A program made the position numbers and the translations under genes. The notes beneath the pieces were generated by a model that did no database searches, was not told the DNA's origin, and worked only from the letters and a program-made list of their open reading frames with translations. A stretch of DNA of 63,186 nt, counting the filler, from Methanobacteriota archaeon (lineage in GTDB: Archaea; JACRDV01): assembly GCA_024860865.1 (NCBI GenBank). It is 10 parts of 10 records of this genome, joined end to end, with 100 filler letters (N's around TTAATTAATTAA, not from the genome) between each part and the next. Parts side by side here need not be neighbours in the genome. Positions count along the whole stretch, not along the records: positions 58,830 to 63,186 come from JACRDV010000158.1; 9 more parts are not named here. One strand, written 5' to 3'. Shown here piece by piece: positions 3,974 to 63,186 of the stretch. Numbering within the stretch: position 1 is the stretch's first letter; each line of letters opens with the position of its first letter.

Positions 3974-4331
3974 GGGCCCGTAGCTCAGCCAGGGAGAGCG
4001 CCTGGCTTTTAAAGGGGATGGCGAGAGATGAATCCCGAGTTTATTAAAGATGAAAGAAAATATAGAGCAAGAAGAGTGCATAAAGTATATAGAAAACTTG
4101 CTAAAGAAATATTAGCTAGGGTAAAGACCAGTAAAACACTAAAAAGAGATTTTGATTGGGCATTTTTTCCCACAAGTGTTTGCGATAGAAGAGCAGTAAA
4201 GGGTAATAAAACACATTCAATTGAAAATTTGACAAAAATACAAAATAAATTTCAAGAAATTCTAAAAAATTTTTATCTCGTCACCTCTTAAAGTAACCAG
4301 GTGGCCCGGGGTTCAAATCCCCGCGGGCCCG
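3974..4331 (+). tRNA. tRNA-Lys(UUU) with 284-nt intron at 37/38 (4012-4295)
   Basis: 5' exon GGGCCCGTAGCTCAGCCAGGGAGAGCGCCTGGCTTTTA; 3' exon ACCAGGTGGCCCGGGGTTCAAATCCCCGCGGGCCCG; BHB helix CTTT/AAAG with 3-nt bulges. Confidence 0.92.
4028..4291 (+). CDS. basic 87-aa hypothetical protein encoded inside the tRNA-Lys intron
   Basis: ORF fills 264 of the 284 intron nt; AGGGG upstream; no family recognised. Confidence 0.5.
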   Translation: MNPEFIKDERKYRARRVHKVYRKLAKEILARVKTSKTLKRDFDWAFFPTSVCDRRAVKGNKTHSIENLTKIQNKFQEILKNFYLVTS

Positions 4332-4353
4332 CTCTGATTTTGGAGGGAGTGGA

Positions 4354-10900: not shown

Positions 10901-12077
10901 TGGTGGACCAATTATCGGCGGAATTCATGATCATATCTCTGGAGCATTTATATTGACTAGAAAAGAGACCGCCTTTACCAAAGGAGAAGCTTACCAATTG
11001 CTTAGAGCTGCTGGAATTGAAAAAGATCTCCCAGAACCAGCTATTAAAGAACGCAAAGCTGAATACTGGACTGGCAAACAACTTTTTAGTATGGCGTTGC
11101 CAGAAGACTTTAATCTTAGTTATAAAGCAAAATTTTGTACAAAATGCGAAAAGTGTCTGAAAGAAAAATGCCAAATTGATGCATATGTTGTGATAAAAAA
11201 TGGTCAGTTAATTTGTGGAGTTATGGATGAAAAATCATTTGGCGCTTTTGCTGGAGACTTACTTGATCGGATAGTTAAAGATTATGGTACTGATGTAGCA
11301 AGACAATTTCTAGATTCAGCAACTAAACTTGTAGTTAAATCGCTTATGAAAAAAGGTTTTAGTGTTGGAATTGATGAGGAAGATATACCAACTGAGGCAA
11401 AAGAACGAATCGAAGATATATTGGACCGCGCGAAACAAAAAGTTAACGACCTCATTGATGCCTACAAAAAGGGAGAACTTGAACCCCTACCAGGTAGAAC
11501 TCTAAAAGAAACTCTTGAAATGCAAATAATGAGAGTCTTAGGTGAATCCAGAGATAAAACTGGTAAAATTGCTAGCGAGTATTTGGGTCTTAGTAATCAC
11601 GCTGTTTTGATGGCTAAAAGCGGTGCACGCGGAAGTATGCTAAATCTTACCCAAATGGCCGCTTGTGTTGGACAGCAAGCAGTTCGAGGGGAACGGATTC
11701 ATCGTGGTTACCGCAATCGAACCTTACCTTATTTTAAGCCAGGAGACCTGGGTGCAGAAGCTCATGGATTTGTAAGATCAAATTACAAAAGTGGACTTAA
11801 TCCGCTCGAATTTTTCTTCCATTCAATGGGGGGTAGAGAAGGATTAGTTGATACTGCAGTCAGGACTTCACAAAGTGGTTACATGCAACGGAGATTAATA
11901 AATGCGCTCCAAGACCTCAAGGTTGAATTTGATGGAACAGTGCGCGATAATAGAGGCGTTATAATCCAATTTAGCTATGGCGAAGATGGAATTGATCCCT
12001 CAAAAAGTGATTGGGGTAAAGCAGTGAACGTTTATAAAATAATTGAGAAGGTTTTAGGTCCGGAGGCCAAAGCTTGA
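7935..12077 (+). CDS. rpoA1: RNA polymerase subunit A' containing an intein
   Basis: CKTC...CPGHFGH, NRQPSLH, NADFDGD, AVRTSQSGYMQRR; GTG start 7935 after GAGGTG. Confidence 0.96.
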   Translation: MPIVGAPKRISKIDFGVLSPDEIRKMSVIKIITADTYDEDGYPIERGLMDPKLGVIDPGLRCKTCGGRVGECPGHFGHIELAAPVIHAGYAKQIYEMLRGTCHACNKILLSGKQTEHFKKTMEEAEKNGEDKWVILDKILQTTRKAKKCLKCGTAQKEMKFEKPTTLIEDGHRLTPSDIRDRLEKIPNEDAQLLGIDTKVARPEWMVLTVLTVPPVTVRPSITLETGERSEDDLTHKLVDILRINQRLRENREAGAPQLIIEDLWELLQYHITTYFDNEVSGVPPARHRSGRPLRTLAQRLKGKEGRFRSNLSGKRVNFSARTVISPDPNISINEVGVPEVAAKELTVPEKVTSRNIEALKQLIIKGPNVHPGANYVLRPDDRRIKITDESKDKIIAELAPGYTVERHLANGDLVLFNRQPSLHRMSIMAHEVKIMPYKTFRLNLCVCVAPETKLTLDGFQRPIEQLKNCWKESQVITYKNNQKIFKTSLSAFWSLKPKDYGKRILKINTNNERELIATEDHPIYTIRGLVKAGDIKIGDRVIVYPIEFPEYEDVEKVILTENDIVKSATKQTYVKHLISELKKRNLLPLALLNNPKALILTKLLGHIFGDGALILKDDVGRAVFRSDVEDLEDIQNDIRMLGFEPGEIKTREYNAEITTYESKKLKVSSVGSSFEVRNKAFATLMKALGAPNGDKVLLDYKVPKWILESPKYVKKVFLAAYFGSELTIPALRKNCKKLFRELVFKISKIEDKINYADDFIKGIEFLLKEFGISISSISRENGNIRKDGKKTKITIVALCSDLESAINFFGKIGYIYNRKADSIARLAYQYLKFKKEELKKRKKILSDIKVWNRKSESLLSIARRNGISVSTLYNWRSRGVNEESLNTSPDFLDFDEWLKTNCYDVKSGLVIEKVISVKDTFTPYVYDITTTADTHNFIANGFLTGNCPPYNADFDGDEMNLHVMQGEEAQAEARILMRVQEQILSPRFGGPIIGGIHDHISGAFILTRKETAFTKGEAYQLLRAAGIEKDLPEPAIKERKAEYWTGKQLFSMALPEDFNLSYKAKFCTKCEKCLKEKCQIDAYVVIKNGQLICGVMDEKSFGAFAGDLLDRIVKDYGTDVARQFLDSATKLVVKSLMKKGFSVGIDEEDIPTEAKERIEDILDRAKQKVNDLIDAYKKGELEPLPGRTLKETLEMQIMRVLGESRDKTGKIASEYLGLSNHAVLMAKSGARGSMLNLTQMAACVGQQAVRGERIHRGYRNRTLPYFKPGDLGAEAHGFVRSNYKSGLNPLEFFFHSMGGREGLVDTAVRTSQSGYMQRRLINALQDLKVEFDGTVRDNRGVIIQFSYGEDGIDPSKSDWGKAVNVYKIIEKVLGPEAKA
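9276..10775 (+). mobile_element. 500-aa intein with LAGLIDADG homing-endonuclease region in RpoA'
   Basis: Starts CVAPET, ends HNFIANGFLTGN|C; LLGHIFGDG and FLAAYFGSE blocks; removal restores RLNLCV-CPPYNADFDGD. Confidence 0.95.
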
Positions 12078-12157
12078 AAAAAGAAGGTTCTAAGAATGAA
12101 CAAAAAATAAAAGCATTAAGAGATCATAAACAAAATAACAAAATAGAAGATTTAAAA

Positions 12158-12257
12158 NNNNNNNNNNNNNNNNNNNNNNNNNNNNNNNNNNNNNNNNNNN
12201 NTTAATTAATTAANNNNNNNNNNNNNNNNNNNNNNNNNNNNNNNNNNNNNNNNNNNN
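12158..12257. other. artificial contig linker (same linker at 24682, 30436, 37203, 40350, 45464, 49901, 55032, 58730)
   Basis: Identical 100-nt N-TTAATTAATTAA-N spacers with stops in all frames. Confidence 0.98.
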
Positions 12258-32455: not shown

Positions 32456-32568
32456 TGCGGGGGCAGGGATTCGAACCCCGGAAAGGCCTACGCCTACAGG
32501 ATTTCTTAGGCGGCTCTTAAGTTTGGCAGAATTATCTCCTGCCCTTTTAACCGCTCAGGCACCCCCGC
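32456..32568 (-). tRNA. tRNA-Leu(UAA) with introns at 30/31 (32523-32537) and 37/38 (32503-32515)
   Basis: Spliced: GCGGGGGTGCCTGAGCGGTTAAAAGGGCAGGACTTAAGATCCTG...GTTCGAATCCCTGCCCCCGCA; BHB helices GGCA/TGCC and CTTA/TAAG. Confidence 0.88.
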
Positions 32569-32664: not shown

Positions 32665-32784
32665 TGCCTCGGACGGGATTTGAACCCGTGTTCTCGGCTC
32701 GATTGGCCACAGGTTTGGAGACCACCTGTTGAGGCCGAGATCCTTAACCGGGCTAGACTACCTTAGCCAGCTTACGCTTGAGGC
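32665..32784 (-). tRNA. tRNA-Glu(CUC) with introns at 5/6 (32763-32779) and 34/35 (32703-32730); duplicated acceptor strand at 32803-32809
   Basis: Spliced: GCCTCGGTAGTCTAGCCCGGTTAAGGATCTCGGCCTCTCGAGCCGAGAACACGGGTTCAAATCCCGTCCGAGGCA. Confidence 0.85.
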
Positions 32785-33612
32785 AGTATTTAACCTTCAA
32801 ATCCGAGGCATTTAATTTTTAAACCGCTCTAAATATTTGAGCTTTTCACCGAAAAATAGAAAAATGAAAATAGGAACAATAGCACTAGAGCTGATTTAAA
32901 TGTGTAAAACATGTGCAAAACATAACCCAAAGAAAAAGTCCAGAAAAAAATAAAGATTACACTCAGTTGATGCTAAGAGAGGATTATTAGATACAAAGTA
33001 CCTACAGCAAATTGTCTCTATCCCCAGCAGGGACCCATTTAGATTGAAACTAGCGTTTAAGGCTTAAATTGGATTAGAGGTTGAAAAGGGAAAAGGAAAT
33101 CTTGTTTATTTCATTCAGGCTTACTGGGTTTTCGCAAATTTGCTTATACAAAAGCTTGCAATATTAACTCCGAAGAACGCACTAGTAAGTGGATTTCAAA
33201 GTTACAAGAATTTGAGATCTGAGATCAACATTATGCAGTGTTTACTTTTCAATTTTTTTTGTTAAGTAAAACTTTTGGTTATTCCTCACTTGTTTTTTAA
33301 CTAGTCTTGCCCTCAGAAGATTTTTAATTAAAAACTTCTAATTTTATTTTTGAGGTATCTATTTTAAATAATTGCTATAGAGTTAAACTTGAAGGTCTTC
33401 TTTATTGAAGGAATATTAGGTTAGTTTAGAAGAATTAGCAAATTAATTATATTTAAAGCATAAAACTTTAATGTTACAATCTTAGTAAATTATTGCTGAT
33501 CGCTGTCAATACTTGTATATGGTAAAACCCAGAAAAATATATTAGGCCAATAAATTACTGGATGAATTTTGATATAACAGAGTAATTTAATACTATATTT
33601 TGAGGGGCAACT

Positions 33613-58829: not shown

Positions 58830-59261
58830 AAGGATGTCTGCATTCAGAATAACTACAGGGCATTTGATTTCAAGACAATAGATGAGCGTGCTTACACCCT
58901 TGAAAGAGAGCCCATCTTTCTGATCAATAAAAAAGATAGATATGGTTCAATACAAATCGGTGATGTCAGGACAGCAACAGTAGAAAAAACGATAGTTGAC
59001 ATGATATTTTTAGTCACCAGAAAAAATTATCCGCTTTCTGGCAGGGAAATAGGGAGGACAATTTACAACATCCTCGAAACAAAGTCCTTGAACATCGGCT
59101 TGATGATACGCTATGCAACAAGAAGAAACATGAGCGCAGAAGTCACAAGAATACTCGCAAAGCTATACCAGAGATACCCTCACCTAAAGGTTTTGGAAAG
59201 ATTTGCAGCCAGAGAAAAAAGCATAGAAAAAGTTGTAAACGAAATCACAGGAGAATACTGA
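58830..59261 (+). CDS. type IV TA antitoxin (AbiEi-like), 5' cut by gap
   Basis: Open from contig start; ATVEKTIVD motif; coupled to the downstream toxin. Confidence 0.65.
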   Translation, partial: KDVCIQNNYRAFDFKTIDERAYTLEREPIFLINKKDRYGSIQIGDVRTATVEKTIVDMIFLVTRKNYPLSGREIGRTIYNILETKSLNIGLMIRYATRRNMSAEVTRILAKLYQRYPHLKVLERFAAREKSIEKVVNEITGEY

Positions 59262-60415
59262 TGGCTACGCTGTTTGGAGAACATGAATCAAAATTGTTGG
59301 GTAATAAAAAGTCCTTCGAAAGAAGGAATGTCGAAAAATTCAGAAGAAAGTATCGAGATGTGCAACTGATAGAGAAAGCCATTTATGTATTAGAATACTT
59401 GTCACAGTTGCGAAGTGTTGGCTTAAATCCATTGTTTAGAGGCGGTTCTGCCACACAGTTTATGCTTCCCACTCCCATAAGAAGGCTCAGCATCGATCTT
59501 GATATAGCAACAAGCCAACCAGAGAAGTTGCTAGAATGCATGAAGTCGATTAATCTAAAATTTGATAAAAAGTTTTTTGATTTTACTAAAGACAGAAGGC
59601 CTGGACTGCATTACAGGATAACAACCCCAACATATTACACCCCTGGGTTTTCTGGATTCTTTTTGTTGGATGTGTTTGAAAAAGAACCGAAATATAAAAC
59701 ACGGATGATGAAACTAAAAACAGAGTACTATGAATCCAACGCAAGAGCAAAAATACCCACAGTAAATTCAATGCTAGGAGATAAGCTATCCACACTTGGT
59801 CTTAGAACAATTGGTCTTCATAAAAACAGGCCGTCAATGGAACAAAGCAAGCAACTTTACGACATAATTCAGCTGTTAGACCATGCAACTGATTTTAGAG
59901 ACATATATGATGCATATTCTAATTGCTTCAAGATTCAAGTGGGTTTCCGAGGATTAAAAATCTGTCTAGATGACGCTCTAGATGACTTGGCATATACGTT
60001 AAAATTATTTGTAATAAGCCAACCAACTGGAGCTCTTCCAGCTAAAATGAGGGATGACGCTGCGTACATAAGAGATGGTATAAGAAAAGTTGAGAGTCAT
60101 CTGAGAAGGGATATAAGGTTTACATATCTCTCAGCGCGGGTTGGTGCTGCAAAAACACTGTTTGCATCTAGGGTTCTAAAGTTAGTAAATGAGAGAAAAC
60201 TTACGAGCAAAGAAGCAACTCAGATATTAAGACTTCTAAAAGATATAAGCGGAAAAGTTGCTGATAAAGATTTTATTGAAAAAATCATACCAAAAGTGAG
60301 ACAAAAGGAAAAAGCGATTAATCCAAATGAACTGAGAGGAAATGCTCCGCTAGCGCTCATATACATATACGGCTACTGGTACCCCTTTGAGCTGGTTGAC
60401 GAAGTAAGAACATGA
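59261..60415 (+). CDS. AbiEii-like nucleotidyltransferase toxin
   Basis: FRGGSA...RRLSIDLD, GDKLST, KQLYDI. Confidence 0.85.
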   Translation: MATLFGEHESKLLGNKKSFERRNVEKFRRKYRDVQLIEKAIYVLEYLSQLRSVGLNPLFRGGSATQFMLPTPIRRLSIDLDIATSQPEKLLECMKSINLKFDKKFFDFTKDRRPGLHYRITTPTYYTPGFSGFFLLDVFEKEPKYKTRMMKLKTEYYESNARAKIPTVNSMLGDKLSTLGLRTIGLHKNRPSMEQSKQLYDIIQLLDHATDFRDIYDAYSNCFKIQVGFRGLKICLDDALDDLAYTLKLFVISQPTGALPAKMRDDAAYIRDGIRKVESHLRRDIRFTYLSARVGAAKTLFASRVLKLVNERKLTSKEATQILRLLKDISGKVADKDFIEKIIPKVRQKEKAINPNELRGNAPLALIYIYGYWYPFELVDEVRT

Positions 60416-60700
60416 ACACCAATCCTTCTTCTACGTTATCCACGTCCTACCCTTTATAATATATTGAGCAAAAAAAGCACTCGTGCTATAATCAATAGGT
60501 ATTTGGGAAAGTGGGGTATTCACACCCAATTAGGCCCACTATTTTGAATATTCGACCCAATGTTCTAAAAAACTGAATGTTTTAGCGTAAATTCATTGAT
60601 TCTATCGCAACCTACAAGAACTTTTAAAAATAATAATGAGATAAATTATTATAGGAAACTGGTCTTTCATACTTTAGCGGGGTTAATCGGGCTCCACCTT

Positions 60701-60866
60701 AGCGGGGACCGCAGCATTTGCGGCCGCAATAGGGTAGCCAGGAAATCCCGTCGGACGTATGCTAAATATAGCATATGGGCAAAGCTCATAAGGTCGTCCT
60801 AGACCAATGAGGTCAAGGATTTCCTAAGAGACCCGAAGATCGGAAGTTCAAATCTTCCCCCCGCTA
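60701..60866 (+). tRNA. initiator tRNA-Met(CAU) with introns at 7/8 (60708-60729), 30/31 (60755-60783) and 37/38 (60791-60830); duplicated acceptor strand at 60676-60682
   Basis: Spliced: AGCGGGGTAGGGTAGCCAGGAAATCCCGTCGGGCTCATAACCCGAAGATCGGAAGTTCAAATCTTCCCCCCGCTA; A1-U72 and three G-C anticodon pairs. Confidence 0.88.
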
Positions 60867-61018
60867 TCAAAATTTGACAACCCATACTTTCTGTAATTTA
60901 AAAAAAATAACTTCTTGCAAAAACTAAAACAAACTTTTTCCTAGCCATCAAAATGAGTAAACTTTAAAACCTAAGAAGTTGTTTATTAGAAGAATTTAGT
61001 TTGAATAGGGGTGTTGAA

Positions 61019-63029: not shown

Positions 63030-63186
63030 GTATATGAGAGTGATACCTCACCCAAACCGGACATGAAGATTTCCCTCATCCGGCTTTTTCCACTGTTACC
63101 GCTTTGCACGGAGTCAATGTTTTGTTGCCGCCACATTGACCGGTTGATTCCATTCGGTGCCTCAGTTCGGTTTTATATTAACCTAC
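63030..63186 (-). ncRNA. 3' part of a group II intron-like RNA (D3-like, D5, short D6), no ORF visible
   Basis: D5-like AAGCCGGATGAGGGAAATCTTCATGTCCGGTTT (63054-63086); TGAGGCACCG...CGGTAACAG just upstream. Confidence 0.6.

Follow-up and report, generated by a model that had tools for sequence, protein, structure and literature searches.

The closest described systems are archaeal tRNA genes that carry several introns or non-canonical BHB motifs (PMC4090602; 10.64898/2026.10.13.758758; here and below, these sources and those named next are cited for the accessible part of their text). The canonical splice motif, hBHBh', has a 4-bp central helix, two 3-nt bulges that carry the cuts, and flanking helices that each have two or more pairs (10.64898/2026.10.13.758758), and the route by which introns arrive is stated to be open in this same preprint of 2026 on Asgard tRNA introns. 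In Nanoarchaeum equitans, which has split tRNA genes, the 5' half carries a trailer complementary to the leader of the 3' half, and these flanks pair together, create the cut site and are taken off by the endonuclease (PMC4090602). In Caldiarchaeum subterraneum, a 5' fragment of tRNA-Thr lies 1.8 kb upstream, across a recombinase-bearing element, of an intron-gaining tRNA-Thr gene (PMC3293823). As for the order of processing, the ends are trimmed before introns are removed in Methanopyrus (PMC3695527), and bacterial RNase P is hindered when the leader pairs with the 3' end (PMC9433436).

In this study, we have analysed a window of 63,186 nt (the whole stretch of DNA, filler included, made of ten parts of one archaeal genome, assembly GCA_024860865.1, joined end to end) and found in it an initiator tRNA-Met gene whose leader carries spare copies of two strands of the spliced tRNA. 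With three protein-spliced introns and both hBHBh' and relaxed HBh' motifs, the gene resembles the multi-intron and non-canonical genes described earlier (PMC4090602; 10.64898/2026.10.13.758758), whereas a leader that copies exon strands is present here and goes unmentioned in the accessible text of both sources. The word "leader" is absent from the accessible text of the preprint, its Supplementary Note 3 (on acceptor-stem cases) aside, and our literature search returned no description of a leader copying exon strands in the accessible texts, supplements (including this possibly relevant Note 3) aside. As in the split tRNAs of N. equitans, sequence outside the mature tRNA would pair to build or present a splice motif; unlike there, the leader here would pair with exon strands in cis and mimic a 5' half, and it makes no cut site with the 3' half. 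A split or permuted tRNA was considered and rejected, as the exons lie in order on a single strand over 166 nt and the predicted helices between leader and 3' half have a 1-nt bulge only. As in the tRNA-Thr of Caldiarchaeum, a less interrupted 5' copy stands upstream of a more interrupted gene; in contrast to that case, the copy here is 18 nt away, inside the probable transcript, lacks the D arm and comes without a mobile element. We also rejected an att duplication by an integrating element, given the 18 nt between the copies, the AbiEii-, DUF6577- and TrmB-like neighbours and the single other AGCGGGG, at 2075-81.

The gene occupies 60701-60866 (+) and consists of four exons separated by introns of 22 nt (at 7/8), 29 nt (at 30/31) and 40 nt (at 37/38). 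When the exons are joined in silico, ARAGORN recognises a 75-nt tRNA-Met(CAT), the cloverleaf of which has A1:U72 and three G:C pairs at the foot of the anticodon stem. Both are features of archaeal initiator tRNAs. In its unspliced form, the gene is missed by ARAGORN and by the Rfam tRNA model. Exon 4 includes the acceptor 3' strand (60859-65) and the discriminator A (60866), and CCA is not encoded. From the spacing of a TATA-like element, read by the usual archaeal promoter geometry, we infer that transcription begins near 60676 and takes in the leader. The coordinates of all these features, together with those of a second gene discussed below, are collected in the table.

Table. Features of the initiator tRNA-Met locus and of the tRNA-Val gene's 5' end, in window coordinates
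Feature	Position	Strand	Basis
TATA-like TTATTATA; implied transcription start ~60676, spacing -30 to -23	60646-60653	+	reading by eye
Spare acceptor 5' strand AGCGGGG, exact copy, 25 nt upstream of exon 1	60676-60682	+	sequence, repeats
TTAA connector, unpaired in the predicted fold	60683-60686	+	fold
TCGGGCTC, spare copy of spliced positions 27-34	60687-60694	+	sequence
ACCTT, outer helix of intron 1, pairs with AGGGT 60731-35	60696-60700	+	sequence, folds
Exon 1, positions 1-7, AGCGGGG	60701-60707	+	in-silico splicing
Intron 1 at 7/8, hBHBh'	60708-60729	+	motif reading and BHB scan
Exon 2, positions 8-30	60730-60754	+	in-silico splicing
Intron 2 at 30/31, relaxed HBh'	60755-60783	+	sequence reading, fold
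Exon 3, positions 31-37, anticodon CAT	60784-60790	+	in-silico splicing
Intron 3 at 37/38	60791-60830	+	fold, inverted-repeat search
GAGACCCGA (GAG-A-CCCGA), predicted partner of TCGGGCTC	60828-60836	+	sequence, fold
Exon 4, positions 38-73	60831-60866	+	in-silico splicing
tRNA-Val(CAC), spare spliced-form acceptor strand GCCTCGG, 25 nt upstream of exon 1	32803-32809	-	sequence, splicing
tRNA-Val(CAC), exon 1 GCCTC (32784-80) and 17-nt intron at 5/6 (32779-63)	32763-32784	-	BHB scan, in-silico splicing

The three introns differ in the motifs that surround them. Intron 1 has a textbook hBHBh' motif, with a central helix of 60702-05 and 60724-27 (4/4 pairs), bulges GG|A and AA|T, and an inner helix of 60709-13 with 60719-23 (5 bp, or 6 in the BHB scan; as this scanner is too permissive to rank sites alone, we used it only jointly with the requirement that splicing yields a tRNA). 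Its outer helix joins ACCTT of the leader to AGGGT of the D stem, for which A60701 needs to bulge out. Because of this outer helix, and because the central helix is built on 60702-05, the motif also needs the leader and the real acceptor bases 2-5. Intron 2 has a 9-bp inner hairpin (60756-64/60769-77), a bulge GG|A and 3/4 central pairs, without an outer helix; by this sequence reading, it is of the relaxed HBh' class. For intron 3 we found no canonical hBHBh' motif, the best candidate having 3/4 central pairs and costing 9-11 kcal/mol in every context, and its 5' site makes a good half-motif with 60808-11 only. In the predicted fold, ATGAG (60807-11) of this intron is paired with the anticodon loop, and the intron's bases 60817-25 are a perfect 9-nt complement of the gene's own D arm at 60740-48 (AGGAAATCC with GGATTTCCT, found in an inverted-repeat search), an arrangement that would hold the precursor out of the cloverleaf fold. 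A nested-intron reading of intron 3, in which 60791-60813 are removed first, was considered.

The leader is 25 nt long and lies directly 5' of the gene. After the copied acceptor strand and the connector comes TCGGGCTC, which equals the anticodon-stem 5' strand plus CTC, and then CACCTT, followed by the second AGCGGGG at 60701-07. The initial annotation had described AGCGGGG-TTAA-TCGGGCTC in the same order, and it had recognised the 8-mer as mature positions 27-34, split in the gene by the 30/31 intron; the junction of exons 2 and 3 bears this out. The 8-mer matches the spliced form only, because TCGG (27-30) ends exon 2 at 60754 and GCTC (31-34) opens exon 3 at 60784. Its predicted partner, GAG-A-CCCGA, runs from the final 3 nt of intron 3 through A38 to positions 39-43. 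The repeat takes in 5 nt of the flank as well (ACTTTAGCGGGG, 60671-82, compared with ACCTTAGCGGGG, 60696-707; 11/12 identical), the acceptor-strand copies of these flank-inclusive repeats lie 18 nt apart, and 18 nt of D arm that separate the copied pieces in the tRNA are missing from the leader. Since flank bases are copied too, the leader probably stems from a local duplication of DNA at the 5' end of the gene. An 8-nt direct repeat, CATACTTT (60668-60675 and 60883-60890), brackets the unit of leader and tRNA; we did not retain it as a target duplication, since a repeat of this length is expected by chance, although it could still be one.

The spare acceptor strand recurs in other genes. Among the five tRNA genes tallied in the window, both of those whose acceptor 5' strand contains or adjoins an intron (initiator tRNA-Met and tRNA-Val) have an exact spliced-form 7-mer 25 nt upstream, and none of the three without such an intron has a second copy of that strand. 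Splicing of the gene at 32665-32809 (-) in silico yields tRNA-Val(CAC). The motif of its 5/6 intron has a central helix of 3/4 pairs, an inner helix of 3 and an outer helix of 3; the upstream GCCTCGG pairs with 32666-72 at a probability of ~1.0, and this leader contributes -13.0 kcal/mol, where shuffled ones give -2.5 +/- 1.9 (0/300 as low). The 17-nt intron at 5/6 is unannotated and occurs besides a canonical intron of 28 nt, and what Rfam and ARAGORN align as the acceptor strand of this gene, the mismatched GCTAAGG, is really the end of the intron with the first 2 nt of exon 2.

Outside the window, two acceptor-strand copies stand upstream in a metagenome initiator gene (L111) with a 7/8 intron and the same CCGCAA end. 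A pattern search in 400 Asgard genomes gave matches in two, one of which (G007) was a false hit in non-tRNA sequence; in the other (G012), the initiator gene has a 7/8 intron and an acceptor-strand copy 15 nt upstream. The FttA of G012 is 61% identical to that of the window, so this is not a close relative. Only one of the 31 tRNA candidates of G012 has two copies, namely the initiator gene, and none of 13 other long tRNA genes that we read in this genome has an intron beside the acceptor strand. The leader-and-intron part of the G012 gene has no match in the 40 relatives searched and, on this sequence comparison, may be young. In a set of distinct tRNA-like genes, 66/68 have a single exact acceptor-strand copy, more being present only in the gene studied here and L111. 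In the predicted folds, the 3' acceptor strand is paired with the leader in 3/11 intron-bearing initiator genes, which are exactly those with exact copies. The spare strand is absent from L099, L103, L139 and L170 despite their 5'-proximal introns, and L164 has a copy with one mismatch. Our initiator gene combines an exact acceptor-strand copy within ~30 nt with an intron-1 central helix that uses positions 2-5. We also observed a different arrangement in the metagenome initiator gene L116 (~12030-12220; 7/8 intron), where TAGCGAG of the leader pairs with CTCGCTA of the trailer just outside the acceptor stem, resembling a second, degenerate acceptor stem. At L205, G012, TTAGCGGGG (initiator acceptor strand plus flank) stands ~50 nt upstream of an unrelated tRNA gene.

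The copy of positions 27-34 has a narrower distribution. Upstream of seven other genes with a 29/30 or 30/31 intron (L099, L102, L103, L105, L116, L139 and L212; up to 60 nt, one mismatch allowed), no such copy was found. An exact spare acceptor strand is present in four leaders; of the genes concerned, our initiator gene is the only one with an interrupted anticodon-stem 5' strand and also the only one with the 8-mer, a pattern that fits, on one case, one placeholder per disabled strand. As to conservation, the strain contigs that cover the leader (X1, X2 and X3, 3/3) are identical over it; these are strain-level relatives only, and one of the three runs may be the source sample. X1 matches throughout 60673-60877 but shows 18 differences in the other 394 non-coding bases, a rate at which ~9 would be expected in the 191-nt precursor and ~1 in the 25-nt leader. 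The whole precursor is thus constrained, and with only ~1 change expected in 25 nt, the strain data do not count for the leader or the 8-mer separately. The only differences of X3 are those at 60713 and 60716, where the intron-1 hairpin has its tip. Among 185,579 species genomes, there was no match to an exact 28-mer from the 3' exon, and scanning metagenomes with a 24-mer yielded 80 loci, of which none is a close relative. The best identity of the window's FttA among the species genomes scanned was 64% (Hydrothermarchaeota, Jord- and Freyarchaeia, Methanoperedens), and the initiator genes of these groups are unrelated in structure. On these two grounds, the lineage has no close relative in the collections scanned; the source archaeon is poorly sampled.

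The predicted fold gives the copied strands a place. The minimum-energy fold of 60676-60866 reaches -81.2 kcal/mol (z = -6.12; 0/200 shuffles as stable), forms all three leader helices and keeps the T arm intact. In it, the leader 7-mer has the 3' acceptor strand 60859-65 as its partner (probability 0.89-1.0), the 8-mer pairs with 60828-30 and 60832-36 (0.81-0.93), and ACCTT pairs with the D stem. It had been suggested in the initial annotation that the 8-mer can pair with GAG-A-CCCGA and that leader and 3' exon make up a D-armless tRNA-like scaffold; the former is predicted at a probability of ~0.9 and the latter matches the minimum-energy fold. The leader stabilises the precursor by -13.9 kcal/mol, against -5.3 +/- 2.1 for shuffled leaders (1/300 as low), and with ACCTT kept its contribution is -13.1 kcal/mol (0/300 shuffles as low). 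In the model, the intron-1 motif costs 7.5 kcal/mol with no leader, 8.3 with ACCTT only, 2.5 with the 8-mer present and 1.4 with the whole leader (0-0.1 kcal/mol at 55-70 C), whereas for the intron-2 motif the cost is 0.3 kcal/mol whether the leader is there or not. Without the leader, the true acceptor stem is closed in the fold and the D-stem strand is paired with 60831-34, and for this reason the modelled intron-1 motif could not form. Scrambling of single modules changes the intron-1 cost little (1.5 against 1.4 kcal/mol for the 8-mer alone, 2.2 for the 7-mer alone), so the leader modules are redundant in the model.

On this evidence, our proposal is that the leader most likely serves as a surrogate 5' half through which the 7/8 intron can be spliced, the 8-mer being its second module, a reading to which we give an even chance. 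Taken more loosely, the folding model suggests that the leader probably holds the tRNA's 3' half in place during intron removal. It would act in cis on the precursor through three modules: AGCGGGG would occupy the 3' acceptor strand, TCGGGCTC would occupy the anticodon-stem 3' strand with the last three bases of intron 3, and ACCTT would pair with AGGGT of the D stem to give the outer helix of the intron-1 splice motif. The 7/8 motif requires the real acceptor bases 2-5 to be paired with the intron, and the real anticodon-stem 5' strand is cut in two by the 30/31 intron. Were the leader absent, the free strands of the 3' half would capture exon 1 and the D-stem strand and thereby prevent the motif; with the leader in place, the acceptor-plus-T-arm part would stay folded and exon 1 would be free for the splicing endonuclease. 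Splicing of intron 1 would then have to precede 5' trimming, and after splicing the real strands would replace the leader, which RNase P would remove. We infer that this pairing takes place in vivo, that the events would follow in this order and that the cell would gain some benefit from them.

The order that intron 1 would need is opposite to that of Methanopyrus (PMC3695527). Pairing of a leader with the 3' end can delay 5' trimming, as in the bacterial case (PMC9433436), which differs in that the enzyme is bacterial, the pairing is with the 3' RCCA and extends the acceptor stem, and there are no introns. The leader could also hinder maturation, as in the model, even when all introns are removed, the leader copy is preferred to the true acceptor strand, by 3.0 kcal/mol. 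A stand-in of this kind would explain how an intron is spliced whose motif uses the acceptor strand. The question bears on how archaeal tRNA genes tolerate introns inside stems and on the processing order of multi-intron precursors, and a leader copy could serve as an annotation signature for hidden acceptor-stem introns, such as the one in this gene that escaped both ARAGORN and Rfam. More tentatively, and leaning against it ourselves for the present, we can extend the proposal to heavily interrupted archaeal pre-tRNAs in general: these would carry a modular leader surrogate with one placeholder per 5'-side stem strand disabled by an intron (here an acceptor strand for the 7/8 intron and an anticodon-stem strand for the 30/31 intron), which would keep the 3' half folded, free the real strands for the motifs and have splicing come before 5' trimming. 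Such a surrogate would be an RNA chaperone, acting in cis, thanks to which introns could settle within stems.

A serious rival to the surrogate 5' half, although we consider it somewhat unlikely, is a neutral relic: duplication or recombination would have put an intron-free copy of the 5' end before a working gene (flank, positions 1-8 and then, after an internal deletion, 27-34), and the leader would pair only because it is a copy and do nothing useful. What makes this rival serious is that copied flank bases, here and likewise in G012 and L111, point to local duplication, the copies of L111 being a plain 10-nt tandem repeat. The 5' tRNA-Thr fragment upstream of the intron-gaining gene of Caldiarchaeum (PMC3293823) would be in line with such an origin, as would the leader-and-intron part of G012, unmatched among its searched relatives, and an 8-mer that has been seen once. 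A relic does not readily account for the fact that the two pieces retained are exactly those that pair with the 3' half, both at 100% identity, while the 18 nt of D arm are gone; if the copy predates introns 1 and 2, it would moreover have stayed perfect through two intron gains. In tRNA-Val, too, a perfect 7-mer stands in a leader that otherwise looks little like the tRNA, and copies occur only beside genes with an intron in or next to the acceptor strand and not at the 66 other tRNA-like genes. The stretch between the copies also lacks an integrase or mobile element, and the neighbouring ORFs are AbiEii- and TrmB-like. If the leader is merely a duplication relic, it would still be a footprint of the rebuilding of the 5' end at the arrival of the introns.

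Other readings concern what the leader would do or whether it is a leader at all. The initial annotation had held that the scaffold blocks the 37/38 site and orders splicing: with the 3' splice site buried in a CTC:GAG helix, intron 3 would stay uncut until the leader is displaced. The predicted fold does place G60830|A60831 inside this helix, with only A60831 bulged and a helix probability of ~0.9; yet the 37/38 motif costs 9.3 kcal/mol with the leader and 9.6 without it, and 9.6-11.6 after in-silico removal of introns 1 and 2, a test that is weak because intron 3 has no definable canonical motif. As the leader leaves this cost unaffected, the model lends no support to a specific block, and the real 27-34 strand would make the same helix once intron 2 is removed. 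We therefore keep, in silico, the scaffold of the initial annotation and set aside its 37/38 block and its splicing order, which we regard as doubtful. The upstream AGCGGGG could alternatively be the real exon 1, transcribed from the mature 5' end, so that 60683-60729 would be a single 47-nt intron with a pseudo-exon inside. By eye, this upstream copy lies about as far from the promoter as is usual, pairing of its bases 2-5 with 60724-27 can give the same central helix, and the same mature tRNA results from either choice; still, only the downstream copy yields the 3-nt bulges with an adjoining inner helix (6), whereas past the upstream copy a single wobble pair could follow the bulge, and in tRNA-Val the BHB scan likewise favours the downstream copy. 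This makes an upstream exon 1 very improbable in our view. Finally, short G+C-rich words recur, and a chance resemblance has to be weighed: TCGGGCTC occurs twice in the window against 0.61 expected, a count reached by 11/100 shuffles, and AGCGGGG four times against 2.56. Three of these four AGCGGGG sites belong to the initiator gene, the fourth lying on the opposite strand at 2075-81, and of all 25-nt windows (both strands, gene excluded, the leader's own windows included) only 31/126,134 have at least 15 bases covered by exact words of the spliced tRNA (7-mers or longer). Chance is unlikely on these counts; with two collinear exact words within one 25-nt leader and the same design in tRNA-Val, L111 and G012, we find it hardly credible.

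Several further loci came to light during this analysis. Directly upstream of the initiator tRNA gene, an ORF at 59001-60415 (+) encodes an AbiEii-like toxin, and a small ORF that weakly matches DUF6577 comes before it; judged by these matches, the two are a possible type IV toxin-antitoxin pair. Elsewhere in the window, a tRNA-Lys(UUU)-like gene at 3975-4332 (+), missed by ARAGORN and Rfam, has its parts ~283 nt apart at 37/38 (4013-4295), and another tRNA gene missed by the tools, at 32457-32568 (-), is of the long-variable-arm type, with internal extra sequence and the acceptor strand GCGGGGG. In genomes G400 and G120, initiator 3' halves (L207 and L213) stand without an acceptor 5' strand within 300 nt upstream and may represent split genes, genes whose introns are very long, or the ends of contigs. 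Near the end of the window, at 63034-63088 (-), Rfam reports a group II intron match of 41.7 bits against a gathering threshold of 40.
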